Shown here: positions 5,001-18,918 of the stretch, piece by piece
Numbering within the stretch: position 1 is the stretch's first letter
How the letters are laid out: every line of letters begins with the position of its first letter
Virus record (IMG/VR): IMGVR_UViG_2574180227_000016
Source: a virus
Taxonomy: Duplodnaviria; Heunggongvirae; Uroviricota; Caudoviricetes
Strand: one strand, 5' to 3'
DNA: 21,365 nt
Program-made: the position numbers and the translations under genes
Notes under the pieces: generated by a model
What the model saw: the letters and a program-made list of their open reading frames with translations, nothing else
Database searches by the model: none
What the model was told of the DNA's origin: nothing

Positions 5001-5183
5001 TCACCTTGTTTTCCTCGCACGATGTCTTAGCCACCGGATATCCCACAGGTGAGCCGTGTAATTGAAGGTTTTAACGTCAGATTCTTTTGGGATTGGCCTG
5101 GGTTTATTTCTGGAGCGTTTCGTTGGAAGGTATTTGCAGTTTTCGCAGATGATGTCGGTGATACTTCGTCGCTGTCGCCTCAT
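5001..5183 (-). CDS. ninE: NinE
   Basis: 60 aa from the internal ATG: [60 protein letters not shown], matching lambda NinE as recalled. ATGA overlap with the upstream methyltransferase stop. Confidence 0.7.
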
Positions 5184-5707
5184 GCCGCCCTCCTGACGCC
5201 CTGCCCGATCGCCATCAATGCCGCTTTGGATACGGTAGTAAACATCCGTCGAGGACTGATGAACGGTCGCCAAATCAGCAGCATGGAACCTTTGCTGTTT
5301 CCCTTCTTCTCCAGCCCTGTCGATGGTTCGATAAAATTAATCCGTCCATCAGTGATGATGCGAACTTCGTCAACACTCTCCAGAGCCTTACTGAACCATC
5401 CGACAGACATATCCTCTGGCACAAGCATCACTACCGTCTGTCGTTGTTGTATGCACTGCTCAGCGGCTTTTTCCACCCACGGCCTGATATTGCTGTACGG
5501 TGGGTTATTCCAGATTGCACCGTGGCTTACCCACTCAGAATTGAGCGCGTCGTCGGCCTCAGTTAGCCAGTGAGCACACAGAGCATTTTTGTCGCTCGCT
5601 GCCGAATCCAGCCAGAATCCAAACTCAATATCCAGTGCATCAAAAAGCCAAAGCGGCGTTTGCCAGCAGTCCTTGTCGTGTGCTGGCGTATTTGATTTGA
5701 TAGTCAT
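5180..5707 (-). CDS. phage Dam-family DNA N6-adenine methyltransferase
   Basis: 175 aa from the ATG overlapping the NinB stop. Contains the NPPY motif (IWNNPPYS) of N6-adenine methyltransferases and an upstream WQTP motif. Confidence 0.75.
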
Positions 5708-6150
5708 GCAGCCTTCCCTTTTCGTTGTGACCATTCATACTCTCGCCAGGAGTCATCACTCCACCGCACGTTGCGCTCTGAGCCGAACCAGAACATGATT
5801 TCGATAAGCTCAGTCATGCTGGCCTTCCGCATTTTGCTGGTGCGCACACCAAGCATGACAACGCCACCGCCGATACCAGGCGCACTTCGTTGCTCCAGTT
5901 TTTTGGTCTTAAGCCACAGGGCAGTGAACAGGTCTTTCCAGTCTTCCGGCGCCAGCCGTTGACCATGCCATAGCACCTGACGCGAAACATCGTTCAGCAT
6001 CGGCCACATACGGTCATTCTGCGCTTTGCTACGCTTGGGTTCTTTAACGTGGACTTCGTGGGGTGACTTGTCGTCGATGGGTAGTGAGAGAATGGCGTCT
6101 ATGGCGTTATTTCTGATTGCTTCGTTGCGAAGCAGAAAGGTTTGCTTCAT
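5704..6150 (-). CDS. ninB: NinB (Orf-family recombination mediator)
   Basis: 148 aa from the ATG at 6150 with GGAGAG upstream. LNDVSRQVLWHGQRL and WSDDSWREYEW blocks parallel lambda NinB. Confidence 0.8.
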   Translation of the reverse strand: MKQTFLLRNEAIRNNAIDAILSLPIDDKSPHEVHVKEPKRSKAQNDRMWPMLNDVSRQVLWHGQRLAPEDWKDLFTALWLKTKKLEQRSAPGIGGGVVMLGVRTSKMRKASMTELIEIMFWFGSERNVRWSDDSWREYEWSQRKGKAA

Positions 6151-6658: not shown

Positions 6659-6945
6659 CTTTTAACTCCATATACCGCCAATACCCGTTTCATCACTGCA
6701 CTCTGGCGACACTCCTTAAAAATCAGGTTCGTGCTCACCTTTCCTTCCCGTTCTTCCCTGGTAGCAAACCGGTAATACACCGTTCGCCAGACCTTACCAT
6801 CAATGACAAGGATTCCTGCCCGCGCCATTTTAGCCGCAGCCTGATTTATACTGGTTACGGTTGCGCCTGTTACCGCGGAAACGTCCTGTGCACAGAAGTT
6901 CTTATGCGCCCCGAGGTAATGAATAATTGCCTCTTTGCCCGTCAT
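6655..6945 (-). CDS. ren: Ren
   Basis: 96 aa, MTGKEAIIHYLGAHKNFCAQDVSAVTGATVTSINQAAAKMARAGILVIDGKVWRTVYYRFATREEREGK, near-identical to lambda Ren as recalled. Confidence 0.85.
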   Translation of the reverse strand: MTGKEAIIHYLGAHKNFCAQDVSAVTGATVTSINQAAAKMARAGILVIDGKVWRTVYYRFATREEREGKVSTNLIFKECRQSAVMKRVLAVYGVKR

Positions 6946-7643
6946 ACACTTGCTCCTTTCAGTCCGAACTTAGCTTTAATTTCTGCGATCTTCGCCAGAG
7001 CCTGTGCTCGATTTAGAGGTCTGCCGCCCATGACAGGAAGTTGTTTTACTGGTTCAGGTATCGTCTCACCACGGTTAATTCGTGCTGTCATACAGGTCAG
7101 TTCATCGGCAGCCTTGCGCCGTAATTCCGCGTCAGTCAGCGCATTGGCCCGCATGTTCTGGTACAGGTTGGTAACCAGCCAGTAGTGCGCGTTTGATTTC
7201 CACGGATAAGACTCTGCATCCGGATACAGGCCACGCTTCCGGCAATACTCGTAAACCATATCAACCAGCTCGCTGACGTTTGGCAGTCCGGCGATAACGG
7301 ATGCTTCTTCCCGGCACCATGCAACAAACTGCCCGGGTGATGGAAGAAATGGTCGATTCTGCCGACGGGCTACGCGCATTCCTGCGTTAACCTGTTCCAT
7401 CGAGGTGATCCCGTTTTCCCGGAAAGCCAGAACCCACTGGCGGCGGATTTCATTCAGTTCGTTCTGGCCCCGGTTAGCCAGACTCGCCGGGAAAGTTGCC
7501 AGTAACTGGCTGAACACACCGTTGATGATCTGCGCTACCTGTTGTACCTGCGGCTTTTCGTCGTACTGTTCCGGCATGTTGTTGGCGATCCGACGCATCT
7601 GCTCACGGTCAAAGTTAACCATCTGTGCGGCGATGTTTTTCAT
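6942..7643 (-). CDS. P: replication protein P (DnaB helicase loader)
   Basis: 233 aa, [44 protein letters not shown]..., essentially lambda P. Overlaps the O stop by 4 nt. Confidence 0.9.
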   Translation of the reverse strand: MKNIAAQMVNFDREQMRRIANNMPEQYDEKPQVQQVAQIINGVFSQLLATFPASLANRGQNELNEIRRQWVLAFRENGITSMEQVNAGMRVARRQNRPFLPSPGQFVAWCREEASVIAGLPNVSELVDMVYEYCRKRGLYPDAESYPWKSNAHYWLVTNLYQNMRANALTDAELRRKAADELTCMTARINRGETIPEPVKQLPVMGGRPLNRAQALAKIAEIKAKFGLKGASV

Positions 7644-8545
7644 AAATCCACCCCGTAAATCCAGTCAGTGTTTGTCAGGTCGAGTTTTGGTTTGCTGGCT
7701 GTCACGCCTGCCTGTTGCTTGTTACGGTTGATTTCGAGCTGGGTCCACTTGTCGCGGAGTTTGGCCGGACTCAGCACGTTACCGGACCAGAAGTTGTCCT
7801 GGCAGGCCCAGCGGAAAAGCACACACATATCGCGGTGGTTACGTCCGTCACGTTCACGCATCAGGCGGATATCGTTAGCCCACCCTGCAAAATTCGGTTT
7901 TCTGGCTGATGGTGCGATGGTCTTCACCATGTCAAACATCCACTCTGCGGCGGTCAGGTCTTCTGCTGTTCCCCACTTGCTGCCGCTCTGAATTGCAGCA
8001 TCCGGTTTAACCACAGAAAGATCGTTTTCTGGCTGGTCAGAGGATTCGCCAGAATTCTCGGACGAATAATCTTTTCTTTTTTCTTTTGTAATAGTTTCTT
8101 TTGTGTGTCCCTGTTTTGGTGACAGCGCTGTCACCGTTTTGGTGACACTTTTTGTCACCAATGCAGTGACATTATCACCAGAGTAGTGACACCCTTCGAT
8201 TTGCCATTCCTCGATGTTCTTGTTAGGCCCGATTTGCTGGCCTTCGCGAAGGATAACCTTCATCGCGATAAGCTCATTCTTGGCCTTGTTTACCTTCTGT
8301 CTTGGCAGCCTGGTAATTTGAGCTAACTGACTATCAGAGATGCGATCCATCTTTTTACCGTAGCCGTATGTTTTACGGCATATGGCGTGGGCAACCTTGC
8401 TCTGATTTTTCGTTAAATCTGCGCCGATAAGCTCTTCATACAGGGCATTTGCAAGACGGGTATAACCATCTTCAACTTCTGCCACACGACGCTCCACAGG
8501 CCGTTGTGAAGGCCTTAAATGTGTTACGGTTGCAAGATTACTCAT
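7640..8545 (-). CDS. O: replication initiator O
   Basis: 301 aa. N-terminus ([56 protein letters not shown]) parallels lambda O. The central linker is encoded by the iteron region. Confidence 0.9.
8064..8195. other. candidate replication origin inside O: AT-rich tract plus four GTGACA/TGTCACC-type inverted-repeat iterons
   Basis: AT-rich 8064-8105. Iterons GGTGACAGCGCTGTCACC (8118-8135), GGTGACACTTTTTGTCACC (8141-8159), GTGACATTATCAC (about 8166-8178) and GTGACAC (about 8185-8191). The location matches ori-lambda sitting in the O linker. Confidence 0.5.
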
Positions 8546-8716
8546 GACCTTTCTCCTTCTGCATCAGCTTCACTTTTTCCAACCCAGCCCGGAATCGACC
8601 AGGCTGCTTGAAGCTGGACAGGAAGCGATCACGTAGTATGTGTTTGTGAATTTTGTCCTGGTAAGGACTGAGTTGTTTTGTCATAATGACTCCTGTAGAT
8701 TGATCCAGTAATTCCC

Positions 8717-9013
8717 TCAGAATTCCATCTGGATTTGTTCAGAACGCTCGGTTGCCGCCGGGCGTTTTTTATTGGTGATTCCATCAAGCGCATACTTAAA
8801 AGCCCTGCTAATCGGACTGATGTCTGATGCCATTCCGAAAGCACACAGGACCGAAGCAATAAATCTCCAGTCCGTTCTGCTTATCTTCGATTCATGACAG
8901 CCAATCATCTTTGCCAGTCCCCTTTGCGTCAGAGCTGACAGGTTGATAAGTAAATCCGTTTCAGCGCGATCAACGTCACGCTGTGATAGTTTGCTGTAAC
9001 TTGTTTGTGTCAT
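8717..9013 (-). CDS. cII: CII-like transcriptional activator
   Basis: 98 aa. The C-terminal tail [20 protein letters not shown] matches the lambda CII C-terminus; the N-terminal part is divergent. Lies between cro and O. Confidence 0.75.
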
Positions 9014-9098
9014 TTCTTAATATTTCCAATAGTGAATAGTTAGTTGAAAGGTATGCGTGGAAACGCATATGGCCTTAGTTGGTCAGATATATTGGGAC

Positions 9099-9144
9099 TC
9101 GCTTTGTCAGCGACGTAGGACGAATGTCCATTGTGAAAAGAGTG
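9099..9144 (-). promoter_or_regulatory. nutR candidate: boxA-like CACTCTTTTCACAA and boxB hairpin TCGCTGACAAAGCGA
   Basis: In - strand sense, between cro and cII. The boxB loop TGACAAA is identical to the boxB hairpin upstream of N. Confidence 0.5.
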
Positions 9145-9154
9145 GATCCGCTTA

Positions 9155-9370
9155 TTAAGCGGCTTGGTGTTCCGGCGGGAACACGTCATCAAGACTGACT
9201 TTTGCGCCGAACTTGTTTAGGCACGCAACAAGAGCACGGCATGTTTTAAGGTCTGGGAAGCGACGACCAGATTCCCAATGTCCGATAGCCCCCTGTGTGC
9301 ATCCAACAGCCTTAGCAAGGGTTGTTTGAGAGATCTTCAGTGACTCTCGATATTTTCGTAGGTTGCTCAT
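9155..9370 (-). CDS. cro: Cro-like HTH repressor
   Basis: 71 aa from the internal ATG with GGAGGG RBS: MSNLRKYRESLKISQTTLAKAVGCTQGAIGHWESGRRFPDL. Divergent from the repressor gene. Confidence 0.75.
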   Translation of the reverse strand: MSNLRKYRESLKISQTTLAKAVGCTQGAIGHWESGRRFPDLKTCRALVACLNKFGAKVSLDDVFPPEHQAA

Positions 9371-9396
9371 ATGCCCTCCATAGTAACCATGAAACA

Positions 9397-9425
9397 ATAA
9401 TACGATATGTACTTTTGGAATGCAA
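9397..9425 (-). promoter_or_regulatory. PR candidate promoter (TTGCAT-17 nt-TATTAT, - strand)
   Basis: Reverse complement of 9420-9425 is TTGCAT and of 9397-9402 is TATTAT, with a 17-nt spacer, about 30 nt upstream of the cro ATG. The -10 overlaps an operator repeat. Confidence 0.5.
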
Positions 9426-9473
9426 TCGAAAAAATACATCTTGTGCATGGATGGTTTTAGTACGGAGCGTAAT
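9399..9473. promoter_or_regulatory. OR operator cluster: three 15-bp sites of form AGTAC-N5-GTACT
   Basis: AATACGATATGTACT (9399-9413), AATACATCTTGTGCA (9433-9447, weaker), AGTACGGAGCGTAAT (9459-9473). The same motif recurs at OL (AGTACACATCGTACT). Confidence 0.45.
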
Positions 9474-9488
9474 AATGAGGGTATGAAA

Positions 9489-10142
9489 ATGAAATGGTAT
9501 GAACTGGCTAGATCCAGAATGAAAGAACTCAGCATAACTCAAGAGAAGTTAGCTGAAGAGCTTGGTATGACGCAGGGTGGAATTGGTCACTGGTTGCGCG
9601 GATCTCGTCATCCATCTCTTGACGAGATTGGTGTGGTGTTTAAGTACCTTGGTATTAATAACGTCTCATTCAACCACGACGGTACATTTTCACCTGTTGG
9701 CGAATACTCATCAGCCCCCGTTAAAAAACAATATGAGTACCCTGTTTTTTCTCATGTTCAGGCCGGGATGTTCTCGTCTGAGCTTAGAACCTTTACCAAA
9801 GGTGATGCGGAGAGATGGGTAAGCACAACCAAAAAAGCCAGTGATTCTGCATTTTGGCTTGAGGTTGAAGGTAACTCAATGACCGCACCAACAGGTTCCA
9901 AACCCAGTTTTCCTGACGGGATGTTAATTCTTGTTGACCCTGAGCAGGCTGTTGAGCCAGGTGATTTCTGCATAGCCAGACTTGGTGGTGATGAGTTTAC
10001 CTTCAAGAAACTGATCAGGGATAGTGGTCAGGTGTTTCTACAGCCACTAAACCCACAGTACCCAATGATCCCATGCAATGAGAGTTGTTCCGTTGTTGGG
10101 AAAGTTATCGCCAGCCAGTGGCCTGAAGAGACGTTTGGGTGA
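9489..10142 (+). CDS. cI: CI-type prophage repressor (HTH plus LexA/S24 autopeptidase domain)
   Basis: N-terminal HTH ([25 protein letters not shown]) and C-terminal S24 signature ([10 protein letters not shown], catalytic Ser; TFKKL, Lys). GAGG sits 8 nt upstream of the ATG at 9489. An ATG at 9483 could give a leaderless start. Confidence 0.85.
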
Positions 10143-10151
10143 GGAGGATAG

Positions 10152-10493
10152 ATGGCGTTCACTGACCTTGAATATCAAGCGGTCAAAAAAGAAGTTCACC
10201 AATTCATTGAAAGCATAAGGCCGCCTGAACATATCCGCAATGAACTGGATATTGTTTATAGCATCAATGACCAAACGATAGATATCGGCGAACAGCGCCC
10301 CGTGTGGCAGGGCAACCCAGGTGAAACAAACATCCTGCCATCAGCAAGAATCAAGTACATACGTTCTCTGGATAGATGGAAAATCTATTGGATGCGGAAG
10401 GATATGAAATGGCATCAGTACAGTACTGAACTTTCGCTGACTGATGCGCTTGAGCTTGTGCGTGCTGACCCGGATTGCTGCTTCTTCGGATGA
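10152..10493 (+). CDS. hypothetical protein co-transcribed with cI (cargo gene A, 113 aa)
   Basis: GAGGAGGA RBS directly after the cI stop. Tryptophan-rich C-terminal half (WKIYWMRKDMKWHQY). Flanked by a 15-nt direct repeat. Confidence 0.6.
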   Translation: MAFTDLEYQAVKKEVHQFIESIRPPEHIRNELDIVYSINDQTIDIGEQRPVWQGNPGETNILPSARIKYIRSLDRWKIYWMRKDMKWHQYSTELSLTDALELVRADPDCCFFG

Positions 10494-10563
10494 GTGAAGA
10501 GACGTTTGGATGATGGATGGTCGCAGAGATGCTCGTAGAGCATACAGCGATGCAGGAGAATTT

Positions 10564-10998
10564 ATGGCACTTAATTTAGAAAGAATATCTTTTATAACCC
10601 CATTTGATAGCAGCGAAGAACCCAACCAACCGACGCTTAATTTTACATGCAATGAATTTCCTGCGCGGCTATCAATTGATTTCAGGGTTGGTATGATCGG
10701 GTTGAAACCAAATTCAAGATATAATTTGGGTATTATGGTAATCCCCGCGCACCTAATTATAAAAAAAGGTGAGGAAATTCAATTCCCTGACGGCTCTTCG
10801 GAATCAGTTTCACTTTTCATCGATACGAAAGATAGCCATTTTGAAACAGGGGTTGGCGGACAGGTAATAGTAACATTGAAAGAAATTAGGGTCCCAGCTA
10901 AAGGGCTGTATAGTGTTATAGGGATATTGCAAGATAATGAAGACCCTAAAAATGAACTTCATAAAAATGAATCATTTTTCACCGTAGAGCTATTATGA
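10564..10998 (+). CDS. hypothetical protein (cargo gene B, 144 aa), AT-rich
   Basis: AGGAGA RBS 5 nt before the ATG at 10564. No TM segment and no recognised family. Confidence 0.55.
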   Translation: MALNLERISFITPFDSSEEPNQPTLNFTCNEFPARLSIDFRVGMIGLKPNSRYNLGIMVIPAHLIIKKGEEIQFPDGSSESVSLFIDTKDSHFETGVGGQVIVTLKEIRVPAKGLYSVIGILQDNEDPKNELHKNESFFTVELL

Positions 10999-11615
10999 GT
11001 GACGACAGTAATTTAAATAATCATGGAAAGCAAGACACCAACATATCTGAAAGCCGGAGGTTGAAGGTTGTTGGCGGTTCTGATTTTGAGGCTGAATTTG
11101 ATAATTCTCCCACCAAGGTGCAAAATAATTACATAAAACCGCCACAAACGGAGGAAGAAGTGGGAACGATCAGCAGAGAGGAACTTGATGCTCGCTTAGC
11201 TGCTAATAAAGCAGAGATGGAGTCTATTGCTTCCTCCATTAGGGCTGACATGGCTCTATCTCGTGAAAGCGTTAATGTCCAATTTGCATCACTTAATGCA
11301 GCCATAAGCTCTCTATCGTCCAAGATCGATGGAAAGATGGATAGCGCTGCTGGCGATATAAAAGCAATTAATGGGAGATTCGAAGGAATTCAAGGACAAA
11401 TAACAGGGGTTAATACCGCAATTAGTGGTGTTCAGTCGGGTATTTCTATACGATTAGCCATTTTTAGTGTCATTATCGCTGTAATAGTTGCGATTCCCGG
11501 GCTGGTATCAGCTTTAAAGTCAGACCACGCACCTTTGCAACAGCCTTCCACTTTGCAAGCGCCGCCACAAAATACCCAGCCAACAGACAACAAAAAAATC
11601 ACTCCCCAGCATTAA
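10995..11615 (+). CDS. hypothetical membrane-anchored protein (cargo gene C, 206 aa)
   Basis: ATGA overlap with gene B. Polar N-terminus, repetitive Ser/Ala/Ile-rich central segment, one predicted TM helix (IRLAIFSVIIAVIVAIPGLVSAL) and a Pro/Gln-rich tail. Followed by a strong terminator. Confidence 0.6.
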   Translation: MSDDSNLNNHGKQDTNISESRRLKVVGGSDFEAEFDNSPTKVQNNYIKPPQTEEEVGTISREELDARLAANKAEMESIASSIRADMALSRESVNVQFASLNAAISSLSSKIDGKMDSAAGDIKAINGRFEGIQGQITGVNTAISGVQSGISIRLAIFSVIIAVIVAIPGLVSALKSDHAPLQQPSTLQAPPQNTQPTDNKKITPQH

Positions 11616-11621
11616 CGCATT

Positions 11622-11649
11622 AACCCGGCCTCAGCGCCGGGTTTTCTTT
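11622..11649 (+). terminator. rho-independent terminator ending the cI operon (tIMM-like)
   Basis: AACCCGGC-CTCAGC-GCCGGGTT followed by TTTTCTTT. Confidence 0.6.
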
Positions 11650-11821: not shown

Positions 11822-11864
11822 AGAACATTTTGTATTGACCCAATAAAGTACACATCGTACTATT
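11822..11864 (+). promoter_or_regulatory. PL candidate promoter (TTGACC-17 nt-TACTAT) with two overlapping OL operator sites
   Basis: -35 TTGACC 11836-11841, -10 TACTAT 11859-11864. OL sites AGTACACATCGTACT (11848-11862, perfect inverted repeat) and AGAACATTTTGTATT (11822-11836). Confidence 0.55.
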
Positions 11865-12111: not shown

Positions 12112-12495
12112 ATGACACGCAGAACTCAGTTCAAAGGCAATTCACGTTCTCGTCGTCGTGAGCGTTTAAAGGCAAAGGCATTAGCTAACTGCGTACTGGC
12201 CCGCGAAGAAGCAATAAGTTCAGAAGTATTACACCGCCCTACTCTAAGCAGAGCGCAGATTCAGGCTAAAGGTACTCACGAAACGCCTGAGCGCATAGAA
12301 GACGCTAAGCCAATTAAGTTCATGGCACAGGACGTGATCTGGCAACAGAAAGAATACAGACGCAATCTGGAGCGAGCAGCCATTGTGTACGCGAATGAGT
12401 TTGGACATAAGCAACCAGAAACTGGTGTATGTCTTCCAAACGTAGCCATTTACGCGGCAGGCTACCGGAAATCAAAACAACTGACGGCGAGGTGA
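12112..12495 (+). CDS. N: N-type antitermination protein with N-terminal arginine-rich motif
   Basis: AGGAGG RBS. N-terminus MTRRTQFKGNSRSRRRERLKAKA is an arginine-rich motif. First gene downstream of PL/nutL. Confidence 0.7.
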   Translation: MTRRTQFKGNSRSRRRERLKAKALANCVLAREEAISSEVLHRPTLSRAQIQAKGTHETPERIEDAKPIKFMAQDVIWQQKEYRRNLERAAIVYANEFGHKQPETGVCLPNVAIYAAGYRKSKQLTAR

Positions 12496-12556
12496 CTTGT
12501 GTTGGTCGCCAGAAAATGAGATTAGGCAGCAAACCACTTATTTGAGAGGAATTAAT

Positions 12557-13180
12557 ATGTCATCAATCCGCTTAACTACGAGAATGAAAGAGGAAATCGC
12601 TCGTAACGCTTTAATTAAGTCTGGGGTTTTCACTGAACTTGAAGAAGTAACAAAGTTAAAGAACCAGCTTGCACTTGACGCCAGAGTTATTGCGTTTGGC
12701 GGTAAAAAGAAAACTGAGGAAGTGGATCAGTTATCATCCAAGTTGGTAGCTATAAGTGAAGAACTTGAAAAGATGGGATGTTCATTTTACTCATACGATG
12801 TTAGTTCTACTTCAATTTATCTGACTGTATCTGGCAGAAGGGTTGGATGGCATTCATATGGGAAAGACGGCAACGGCAAAGATATATTGCTCCCTACTCC
12901 GACCAAAGATAAATGCATGTTTGACGCAGAGCACGAAATAACAAAAAGGTTTGATGAAATCTGCGCATTGCAACAAAAACTTGAAGCCAAGAAAAAGGAT
13001 ATCGAATCAAATGTATGGGCTGCTTTAAACTCAGTCACAACAGTTAAGCGATTTATTGAAGTTTGGCCTGAAAGCAAAGAATTGCTACCAAAAGAAGCAG
13101 ATAAAGCAAGTACAGCACTTCCTGCTTTACGGGTAGAAGATTTGAATAAGATGATTGGACTTCCTTCCGAGGCCGCATAA
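12557..13180 (+). CDS. hypothetical protein (207 aa), AT-rich cargo between N and cIII
   Basis: Start placed at the internal ATG with GAGAGGA RBS (the track ORF begins with TTG at 12497). Lysine/glutamate-rich, no recognised family. Confidence 0.55.
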   Translation: MSSIRLTTRMKEEIARNALIKSGVFTELEEVTKLKNQLALDARVIAFGGKKKTEEVDQLSSKLVAISEELEKMGCSFYSYDVSSTSIYLTVSGRRVGWHSYGKDGNGKDILLPTPTKDKCMFDAEHEITKRFDEICALQQKLEAKKKDIESNVWAALNSVTTVKRFIEVWPESKELLPKEADKASTALPALRVEDLNKMIGLPSEAA

Positions 13181-13313
13181 TCAGCCTTTATTTTTGGCAT
13201 AAACAACAGAATAAACACTGCACTGTGTATTCATTCCAACGAGTGAATACACGGAGCAATGTCGCTCGTAACTAAACAGGAGCCGACTTGTTCTGATTAT
13301 TGGAAATCTTCTT

Positions 13314-13337
13314 TGCCCTCCAATGTGAGGGCTTTTT
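13314..13337 (+). terminator. rho-independent terminator (tL-like)
   Basis: GCCCTC-CAATGT-GAGGGC followed by TTTTTT. Confidence 0.55.
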
Positions 13338-13352
13338 TATATGCATACCAAT

Positions 13353-13377
13353 AACGCTTCACTAGAGGCGTTTTCGT
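13353..13377 (+). terminator. second weaker hairpin terminator
   Basis: ACGCTTC-ACTA-GAGGCGT (one mismatch) followed by TTTCGTT. Confidence 0.35.
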
Positions 13378-13404
13378 TATGTGTAAATAAATAAGGAGCA
13401 CACC

Positions 13405-13545
13405 ATGCAATATGCCATTGCAGGGTGGCCTGTTGCTGGCTGCCCTTCCGAATCTTTACTTGAACGAATCACCCGTAAATTACGTGACGGATGGAAACGC
13501 CTTATCGACATACTTAATCAGCCAGGAGTTCCCAAAAATGGATAA
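13405..13545 (+). CDS. cIII: CIII (FtsH/HflB inhibitor)
   Basis: Manual translation [46 protein letters not shown] (46 aa) matches lambda CIII over its length; AAGGAG RBS. Under the ORF-track cut-off. Confidence 0.8.
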   Translation: MQYAIAGWPVAGCPSESLLERITRKLRDGWKRLIDILNQPGVPKNG

Positions 13546-18292: not shown

Positions 18293-18502
18293 ATGTCTAT
18301 TGCCGCAAGTTACACCATGCATCTCTATTGTGACTGCCGCCAGTGTACGGAAGGTGTATATCCAGTGCCAGACTTCGGTGAGTATATCGGTACGTCATGG
18401 TCTGGTTGTGCAAAAGAGGACCGTAAAGACGGGTGGCGAATAAGCAAAGACAAAACACGTGCTTTTGCGCCAGGGCATAAAGTTTTAAGGATTAACACAT
18501 GA
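18293..18502 (+). CDS. hypothetical Cys-rich small protein (69 aa)
   Basis: AAGGAG RBS. MSIAASYTMHLYCDCRQCTEGVYPVPDFGEY... Confidence 0.45.
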   Translation: MSIAASYTMHLYCDCRQCTEGVYPVPDFGEYIGTSWSGCAKEDRKDGWRISKDKTRAFAPGHKVLRINT

Positions 18503-18918
18503 CCACTATTACCAAAGAACGTATTGAATTGTTCATTAAAAATCCGCTTGAAAACGGGCTTACTCGTGGCGAACAAATGGAACTGGCACGAATTGCACTG
18601 GCATCACTGGAACGCGAACTGATTCGCCACGAGCATGCCAAATGGTCTGACTCCACATTTGGCTGCGTTGGCCCCATTGGTCCACTGAAACACCTCTCAA
18701 AAGAGGCTCTGGAAGCCGCAGCCGAACCAGACGATCTCAGCGAGTGGGCTGATATGCATTTCCTGTTGTGGGATGCACAGCGCCGTTCTGGCATCAGCGA
18801 TGCTGAAATTACCGCTGCTATGGAAGATAAATTGAAGATCAACATGGAGCGCCAGTGGCCTGAACCAAAAGATGGTGAGCCTCGCTTGCACATTAAAGAA
18901 CCGGCAACTCTCCGGTAA
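18499..18918 (+). CDS. DUF550-like / MazG-like nucleotide pyrophosphohydrolase-type protein (tentative)
   Basis: 139 aa. The acidic helix KEALEAAAEPDDLSEWADMHFLLWD resembles the MazG-type E/D metal-binding motif. ATGA overlap upstream. Confidence 0.4.
   Translation: MTTITKERIELFIKNPLENGLTRGEQMELARIALASLERELIRHEHAKWSDSTFGCVGPIGPLKHLSKEALEAAAEPDDLSEWADMHFLLWDAQRRSGISDAEITAAMEDKLKINMERQWPEPKDGEPRLHIKEPATLR

Follow-up and report, generated by a model that had tools for sequence, protein, structure and literature searches.

Which function is carried by the gene that stands directly behind the antiterminator gene N, ahead of cIII, in the lambda-like prophage of the virus record IMGVR_UViG_2574180227_000016? 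This question is addressed here for the whole stretch of 21,365 nucleotides (nt), referred to as the window and described along the pL direction. By its sequence, the gene is an already known feature, as it is an annotated member of the Pfam family PF18757 (Nmad5), and the finding of such a gene is for this reason not new. The "nucleotide modification" in the family's full name is a prediction from gene neighbourhood. In the window and related loci, the Nmad5 gene and about 160 nt of structured 3' segment constitute a self-contained mosaic cassette directly after N. The reading that we tentatively favour, at somewhat less than an even chance, is that Nmad5 is a non-catalytic binding protein for early host takeover or counter-defence.

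The 207-residue product matches PF18757 over residues 4-203 and profile positions 1-206 of 206 with 238.1 bits (cut-off 27; E=1.3e-70), i.e., above the gathering threshold across the whole domain. It also matches phrog_1965 (E=9e-83), and identical or near-identical proteins are named "Nmad5 family putative nucleotide modification protein" at NCBI; a scan against NCBIfam gave no match. A previous interpretation made from the DNA letters (hereafter the sequence-only reading) had seen no recognisable family and had suggested a profile search; that search, run here, thus overturned its claim. The same reading had described a 207-amino-acid (aa) open reading frame (ORF) with a good ribosome-binding site (RBS), richer in AT than its neighbours and lying between N and cIII-kil-gam, and these points are borne out by the start codon with its GAGAGG sequence, the base composition given below and the flanking coordinates (Table 1).

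Homologues of the same architecture (PF18757/IPR040835) include gp33 of phage HK542, to which the window protein corresponds, and proteins of mEp235 and HK244; all carry a C-terminal module with WPE and LN..IGLP motifs. Identity to the HK542 and mEp235 proteins is 97-98%, and the genes occupy the same post-N position. The gene also occurs in PhiR12 phages and Stx1a phages, always directly after N, and is found under the RefSeq Nmad5 name in 211 of 5,426 complete E. coli genomes (about 4%). Like the family in general, the window protein stands alone, is about 200 aa long and has all residues of the C-terminal module; it is an ordinary member with no material difference. The neighbourhood of modification enzymes from which the family name is derived is absent here, where the neighbours are N and cIII. 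As this is a contextual trait and not a sequence criterion, it leaves the membership standing. Literature searches under PF18757, phrog_1965 and PhiR12 returned nothing relevant.

The ORF begins with ATG. An alternative TTG start at position 12497, which would give a 227-aa protein, was ruled out because every homologue begins with M-x-x-R-L-T. The gene has a GC content of 0.396 (0.337 at third codon positions), as compared with 0.487 for N, 0.498 for gam, 0.523 for bet, 0.520 for exo and 0.472 for the window. Among 64 distinct alleles from 80 lambdoid loci closely related to the window, which serve as the lambdoid comparison set throughout, the median ratio of nonsynonymous to synonymous polymorphism (pN/pS) is 0.32. 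In an exhaustive profile search, the family comprises 2,288 clusters at 50% identity. The full-length Pfam match, the size of the family and the pN/pS value together indicate that the ORF is more than a chance reading frame; the ORF is a genuine gene kept by purifying selection. The family consists almost entirely of stand-alone proteins, and a length of 190-220 aa is shared by almost all of the 150 best representatives; a Pfam scan assigned all of 50 diverse members to Nmad5. A weak match to YfjL_C (E=0.0034) was dismissed as spurious, as it was seen in only one of these 50. A search for domain fusions with the C-terminal module alone yielded short fragments and no multi-domain proteins.

Transcription of the gene would depend on the pL-like promoter match upstream of N, which would drive N and the Nmad5 gene together; this is context and not proof of function. 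A lambda-PL-like promoter is annotated at the equivalent site in HK542. The stop codon of N and the Nmad5 start are separated by 61 nt, and a promoter scan found no promoter-like site between the two genes, the pL-like match alone lying upstream. A terminator scan found no convincing site from the pL-like match to the Nmad5 start, the only candidate being a weak 5-bp stem inside N. Early expression is suggested by three features: no predicted terminator separates N from the Nmad5 gene, hairpins follow the gene, and its place is promoter-proximal. With no promoter-like site of its own downstream of N, Nmad5 should be silent under cI repression.

This arrangement bears on the idea that Nmad5 is a prophage exclusion or defence protein of the SieB or Rex type, which would shield the lysogen. 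The lambda slot carries sieB, and the low GC content of the Nmad5 gene resembles that of many morons. A shielding protein of this kind is nevertheless hardly credible here: the gene has no predicted promoter of its own, neither a Pfam SieB match nor a PADLOC match was obtained for the protein, the predicted fold is soluble with no obvious membrane segment, and the family occurs widely in strictly lytic phages, i.e., N4-like phages, Dhillonvirus and Yuavirus. The lack of a predicted promoter and of a SieB match in particular makes SieB-like exclusion unlikely.

The conserved 165 nt past the Nmad5 stop codon accompany the gene and are strongly structured, with a folding energy of -52.1 kcal/mol (z=-5.2); none of 200 shuffled sequences folded as stably. 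An inverted repeat (13215-13236 and 13241-13262) provides the arms of a long hairpin, the fold contains a perfect 14-bp stem, and two terminator-like hairpins lie in and beyond the segment (Table 1). Candidate roles for the segment are those of a tL1-like terminator, a site for RNase III and a joint at which recombination occurs. It also overlaps a 31-codon ORF of doubtful coding status, the first 27 codons of which are found about 80 nt past the Nmad5 stop in approximately 75 of the 80 loci, before varied downstream genes. A derivation of this small ORF from a deleted gad1 gene was rejected, as these codons precede varied genes and Gad1 occurs in only one of the 80 loci. Variable cargo genes start directly after the 3' segment, each with its own GGAGGAG RBS and ATG.

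Mosaic junctions lie close to the gene. In 66 of the 80 lambdoid loci, homology breaks on the left at 12490-12530, no more than some 40 nt away from where N stops, and the right break falls at 13210-13420. In the window, the cIII RNA thermometer together with cIII (13392-13545) forms the right-hand boundary of the slot, and the order continues with kil, gam, bet, exo, an Ea22-like gene and int. The gene directly upstream encodes one of three distinct clusters of N-like proteins in 59 of the 80 loci and genuine lambda Ral (PF11058, E=2e-48) in 10. Downstream neighbours belong to 11 families, including cIII/kil, DUF2528 and three PHROGs of no assigned function; P22 gp17 (PF17420) is present there in 4-5 loci, and Gad1 (PF25705, E=6e-67; locus L010, 5703-6773) and a PHROG "anti-restriction protein" in one locus each. 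The Ral-Nmad5 pair is also found in one Providencia prophage, and in Klebsiella and Serratia prophages Nmad5 is the first called gene past the repressor. The promoter-proximal end of the leftward operon, or a position close to it, is where Nmad5 is found in prophages of Escherichia, Klebsiella, Providencia and Serratia. At the junction occupied by Gad1, two further loci (L038 and L063, 5703-6764) have a gene for a 354-aa protein without a Pfam match, which may be another counter-defence candidate.

The same neighbours bear on the possibility of classical anti-restriction, in which Nmad5 would act on type I restriction-modification like Ral or as a DNA mimic like Ocr or ArdA. The slot and the early timing are shared with lambda ral, and anti-restriction genes occupy neighbouring positions. 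The known counter-defence genes of this slot, Ral, Gad1 and gp17, lie in the same early leftward operon and mosaic region, often adjacent to Nmad5; in contrast, they have no sequence or fold relationship to it, and Nmad5 co-occurs with them instead of substituting for them. As Ral coexists with Nmad5 in 10-11 of the 80 E. coli loci and in the Providencia prophage, Nmad5 is not a Ral replacement. The Pfam scan gave no match to the 66-aa Ral family (PF11058), Ocr or ArdA, no match to a PHROG anti-restriction family was obtained, and no fold match to solved anti-restriction proteins was found. With a nearly neutral isoelectric point (pI) of 6.8, as compared with about 4 for Ocr or ArdA, Nmad5 is not an acidic DNA mimic. 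A Ral-like or DNA-mimic function is thus very improbable.

The sequence-only reading had placed the gene among the accessory genes of a variable post-N slot, for which the left homology breaks and the varying neighbours on both sides provide good evidence. Its proposal of an anti-restriction or exclusion role stands in part: the accessory slot and early position fit counter-defence, whereas Ral-like, DNA-mimic and SieB-like functions are unsupported in view of the coexistence with Ral, the pI and the missing promoter.

The gene can also be interrupted. In the Stx2a-converting phage Stx2_716 (locus L171, 1029-3025), an IS3-family element with transposase ORFs of 108 and 296 aa, on the strand opposite to Nmad5, splits the gene near codon 36. 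The Stx2a-converting records listed show the same truncated match in two pieces; in total, a match is present in 48 Stx2a-converting records. This interruption indicates that Nmad5 is dispensable, at least for prophage maintenance.

The protein was modelled with AlphaFold at a mean pLDDT (predicted local distance difference test) of 85.8 with 23 sequences and of 91.0 with 50 sequences, the latter with a pTM (predicted template modelling score) of 0.81. The predicted structure consists of N-terminal helices (8-22, 24-47 and 50-72), a beta-hairpin region (86-122), a long helix (127-158), a small C-terminal helical module (163-176), a low-confidence linker (185-190) and a terminal helix (193-200); the last 25 residues of the C-terminal module come after the linker. 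This predicted fold would be a soluble helical bundle with a beta-hairpin and no obvious membrane segment in the model, dedicated transmembrane prediction not being part of the analysis. Comparison of the model with the Protein Data Bank (PDB) revealed no solved structural relative, and PDB sequence searches, run with the protein alone and also with a profile of 50 sequences, yielded coiled-coil noise only. The pI is 6.8 with a net charge of -0.3; for the family, the median pI is 7.2 (range 5.2-9.6) and the net charge is near 0.

Conservation peaks at the C-terminus. The conserved module reads T162-x-K164-R165-(L/F)166-x3-W170-P171-E172-x2-E175-L176-x-P178, and is followed by L188-P189 and by L196-N197-x2-I200-G201-L202-P203. 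The peak positions are T162, K164, K/R165, L166, W170-P171-E172, E175-L176, P178, P189, L196-N197, G201 and P203, of which W170-P171-E172, E175-L176, P178, L196-N197, G201 and P203 are invariant or at least 90% conserved among 50 diverse members. The C-terminal tail was also considered as a beta-clamp-binding motif, for which the consensus is QL[SD]LF or QLxLxL; judged by eye, the spacing does not seem to fit, and the resemblance was set aside.

Genetic evidence is available for a homologue from Dhillonvirus. The substitutions K216E in phage SM_A8 and K296E in phage SM_S22 within nmad5 allow escape from the defence Tmn, and reversion of the escape substitution restores Tmn sensitivity; the gene resisted cloning, with apparent toxicity (PMC11846954). 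The SM_S22 gene (CDS0006; locus L170, 5005-6009) is annotated as a protein of 334 aa with an N-terminal extension of 80 residues overlapping the scaffold gene. The extension is absent from the 254-aa proteins of SM_A8 and KS_S9, and the conserved MRLT start is residue 81 in SM_S22. It is probably an annotation artefact that accounts for the numbering of K296 and K216, and because it precedes the conserved start, the two are taken as the same residue. In the window protein, the aligned position is R165 within the TxKR-L-x3-WPE motif, and K216/K296 is the only experimentally informative residue in the Nmad5 family. This position of the Tmn-escape lysine within the C-terminal motif provides a link to immunity. 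The Dhillonvirus proteins (CDS6/7 of SM_A8 and SM_S22) belong to the same family and share the C-terminal motif, but differ in their low identity (about 23%), their length of 254 aa and a beta insert that is enlarged by comparison (about 45 residues). Dhillonvirus is a lytic siphovirus, and its nmad5 is encoded among the head genes, on the opposite strand. A comparable case is RIIB, the Tmn trigger in phage T2, which is described as a replisome component (PMC13001434). RIIB of T4 and T2 is likewise an early phage protein and a site of Tmn-escape mutations, although its sequence is unrelated and nonsense loss-of-function mutations allow escape (PMC13001434), whereas for nmad5 only the K-to-E change does so and deletion does not (PMC11846954).

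Genomic context in other phages points to a second possible role, namely that of a replisome or recombination accessory, in which Nmad5 would bridge the single-stranded DNA-binding protein (SSB) and the polymerase or aid Red/Erf, and defence systems such as Tmn would detect it as part of the replisome. The most diverse of the alignments varied too much to be used for retrieving loci. A diverse viral set of 77 loci was assembled, from which 31 non-redundant loci provided 124 proteins within two genes on either side of Nmad5. The order DUF2800 nuclease, Enc34-type SSB, Nmad5, PolA occurs in about 30 of the 77 loci, and the commonest Pfam neighbours in the non-redundant loci are DUF2800 (8), Enc34 SSB (7) and PolA (7). 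Nmad5 is also located beside Rv2179c-type exonucleases and deoxynucleoside monophosphate (dNMP) kinase in other phages, and lambdoid Nmad5 lies in an operon that carries gam-bet-exo or erf. The description of RIIB as a replisome component would be in line with such a role.

The SSB-PolA arrangement was examined in 80 loci (L180-L259) retrieved by the Enc34-type SSB alone, all at least 90% identical. Nmad5 lies between SSB and PolA in only 16 of the 71 loci with enough downstream sequence. The gap between SSB and PolA ranges from 75 to about 2,550 nt, and is shorter than 200 nt in 17 of the 76 loci with a placeable downstream PolA. In 17 loci the gap holds an opposite-strand protein of 174 aa and in 8 loci one of 199 aa, both with membrane-like N-termini; a 501-aa protein is found in 6 loci and nothing in 17. 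As only 16 of 71 related modules carry Nmad5, the SSB-PolA interval is considered an accessory hot spot with Nmad5 as optional cargo, and the gene order was downgraded as evidence for a replisome function. The post-N slot of lambdoids is regarded in the same way. Lambdoid phages replicate with the host replisome. In addition, the interruption by an insertion sequence in Stx2a phages argues against a replisome role, and a family charge near 0 with a median pI of 7.2 does not suggest DNA binding. A replisome or recombination accessory is thus an unlikely reading, albeit one that retains some weight.

A related question is whether the family name itself indicates the function, i.e., whether Nmad5 is a non-catalytic or cryptically catalytic subunit for hydroxymethylases, aGPT-Pplases or methyltransferases. 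Nmad5 lies inside the thymidine-hypermodification cluster of M6-like phages (PMC9476957), where, in Yuavirus (M6-like) genomes, it is flanked by aGPT-Pplase1 and a thymidylate-synthase homologue. It is also located beside ThyX in an N4-like Shigella phage, and two further phages carry it beside DUF4406 and close to methyltransferases. In contrast, neither aGPT-Pplase nor thymidylate synthase is among the top families listed for the 124 neighbours in the 31 non-redundant viral loci. The M6 chemistry was attributed to gp51-gp54 and reconstituted with these alone; the term Nmad5 is absent from that publication, and its text, as searched, gives no role to an Nmad5 protein (PMC8989533). The window encodes a Dam-type methyltransferase and a dATP/dGTP pyrophosphohydrolase (Table 1), but these candidates are 5-7 kb from the Nmad5 gene, the Dam gene being on the other strand, and HK542 (39 kb) carries Nmad5 without an annotated methyltransferase, hydroxymethylase, aGPT-Pplase or nucleotide kinase. 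The predicted structure has no recognisable enzyme fold. Participation in base modification is thus considered quite unlikely.

Overall, Nmad5 occupies variable accessory slots in three unrelated genome architectures. This context argues against Nmad5 as an enzyme or a core part of the replisome, and suggests that the gene owes both its "nucleotide modification" label and its seeming association with replication genes to landing in accessory hot spots.

The favoured reading, an early non-catalytic binding protein, is built as follows. Nmad5 would be transcribed together with N, among the first genes after infection or induction, and would be silent in the repressed prophage. It would not be an enzyme but a scaffold of a helical bundle and a beta-hairpin, whose C-terminal module (TxKR-L-x3-WPE-x2-EL-x-P and LN-x2-IGLP) might dock onto a conserved host or phage partner in DNA metabolism or immunity. 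It would be a dispensable factor in the functional class of its neighbours Ral, Gad1 and gp17 with a different target, and neither a nucleotide-modifying enzyme nor an analogue of Ral or SieB. The non-catalytic appearance is suggested by the absence of a PDB relative, the C-terminal conservation peak and the reconstitution of M6 chemistry with gp51-gp54. The accessory, mobile status is supported by the mosaic junctions, the low GC content, Ral and varied neighbours, the presence in 16 of 71 SSB-PolA modules, the Dhillonvirus placement and the split by an insertion sequence.

Several observations weigh against this reading. The proposed mechanism is drawn from gene context and conservation. Deletion of nmad5 in Dhillonvirus leaves Tmn sensitivity unchanged, which indicates that the wild-type protein is not an anti-Tmn factor; the escape allele behaves as a gain of function and does not speak for inhibition of the defence by the wild-type protein (PMC11846954). 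A recognised anti-defence gene lies within 5 kb in only 16 of the 80 lambdoid loci. With 2,288 clusters from very different phages, the family is broader and better conserved than would be usual for an anti-defence gene. Its recurrent neighbours elsewhere serve replication and nucleotide metabolism, namely PolA, SSB, DUF2800 nuclease, Rv2179c-type exonuclease and dNMP kinase, and also ThyX or hydroxymethylase and aGPT-Pplase1. Moreover, the conserved polar residues R5, K21, R43, D/E125, H126, E172, E175 and N197 could form an active site.

A bolder form of the proposal is that Nmad5 is a very widespread, structurally novel, non-enzymatic early protein unrelated to nucleotide modification, that its invariant C-terminal module docks onto a single conserved bacterial protein with a part in DNA metabolism or immunity, and that this surface, including R165 (K216 in Dhillonvirus), is watched by Tmn. 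So specific a combination is rather doubtful. The probability outside the readings described here belongs to something else. RIIB, with which Nmad5 was compared above, is non-essential.

Table 1. Features of the window that surround or concern the Nmad5 gene.
Feature	Position	Strand	Basis and remarks
Dam-type N6-adenine methyltransferase	5180-5734	-	nin region, pR-side block, opposite to Nmad5; PF05869, E=8e-65
P, O, cII, cro	6942-9535	-	
cI	9420-10142	+	
Three genes in rex position	10152-11615	+	
Strong terminator	11622-11643		after the rex-position genes
pL-like sigma-70 promoter match	11835-11863	+	TTGACC-17-TACTAT; consensus scan, 9/12 positions
N antiterminator	12112-12495	+	Pfam N_peptide (PF25694), E=2.3e-15; phrog_271, E=1.5e-38
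Shine-Dalgarno GAGAGG	12544-12549	+	7 nt before ATG; read from sequence
Nmad5-family coding sequence	12557-13180	+	207 aa and stop; translation, Pfam PF18757, pN/pS
Structured 3' segment	13181-13345	+	conserved, accompanies the Nmad5 gene
31-codon ORF	13259-13354	+	coding status doubtful
Terminator-like hairpin with T-run	13315-13340	+	terminator scan
Second terminator-like hairpin	13353-13380	+	before cIII; consensus scan, 8-bp stem, then TTTCGTTATG
cIII RNA thermometer	13392-13450	+	Rfam RF01804, 88.5 bits, E=1e-21
cIII	13405-13545	+	Pfam Lambda_CIII (PF02061), E=9.4e-31
dATP/dGTP pyrophosphohydrolase-family protein	18499-18918		late pL operon; PF04447, E=7e-42

Other regions of the window and of HK542 contain additional cargo. 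Between cI and pL (10152-11643), three co-oriented genes in the position of rexA/rexB encode a 113-aa DUF3024 protein, a protein of 162 aa (phrog_5893) and a coiled-coil protein of 206 aa (phrog_5820) that has a membrane helix at its C-terminus and weak matches to MakA/MakE pore-forming toxins. HK542 has homologues of the 162-aa and 206-aa proteins, and the trio is a candidate for a prophage-expressed exclusion module. A TerB-domain protein (PF05099, E=1e-15) is encoded at 1338-1841 on the minus strand, downstream of a Q antiterminator homologue (2076-2594), which is an unusual place for such cargo. In HK542, the interval from the lysis genes to cos carries two genes for glycosyltransferases, with LPS or DNA as candidate substrates, and one for an HNH endonuclease (gp54-gp55; locus L179, 36330-38239).

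If the bolder form of the proposal is true, Nmad5 would represent a new class of host-takeover or counter-defence factor. The family is of interest as it combines thousands of members in unrelated phages and a confident predicted fold with a single genetic observation, the escape from Tmn. The lambdoid copies, such as those of HK542 and mEp235, offer a convenient entry point, as these phages are easily engineered and the slot also houses Ral, Gad1 and gp17.

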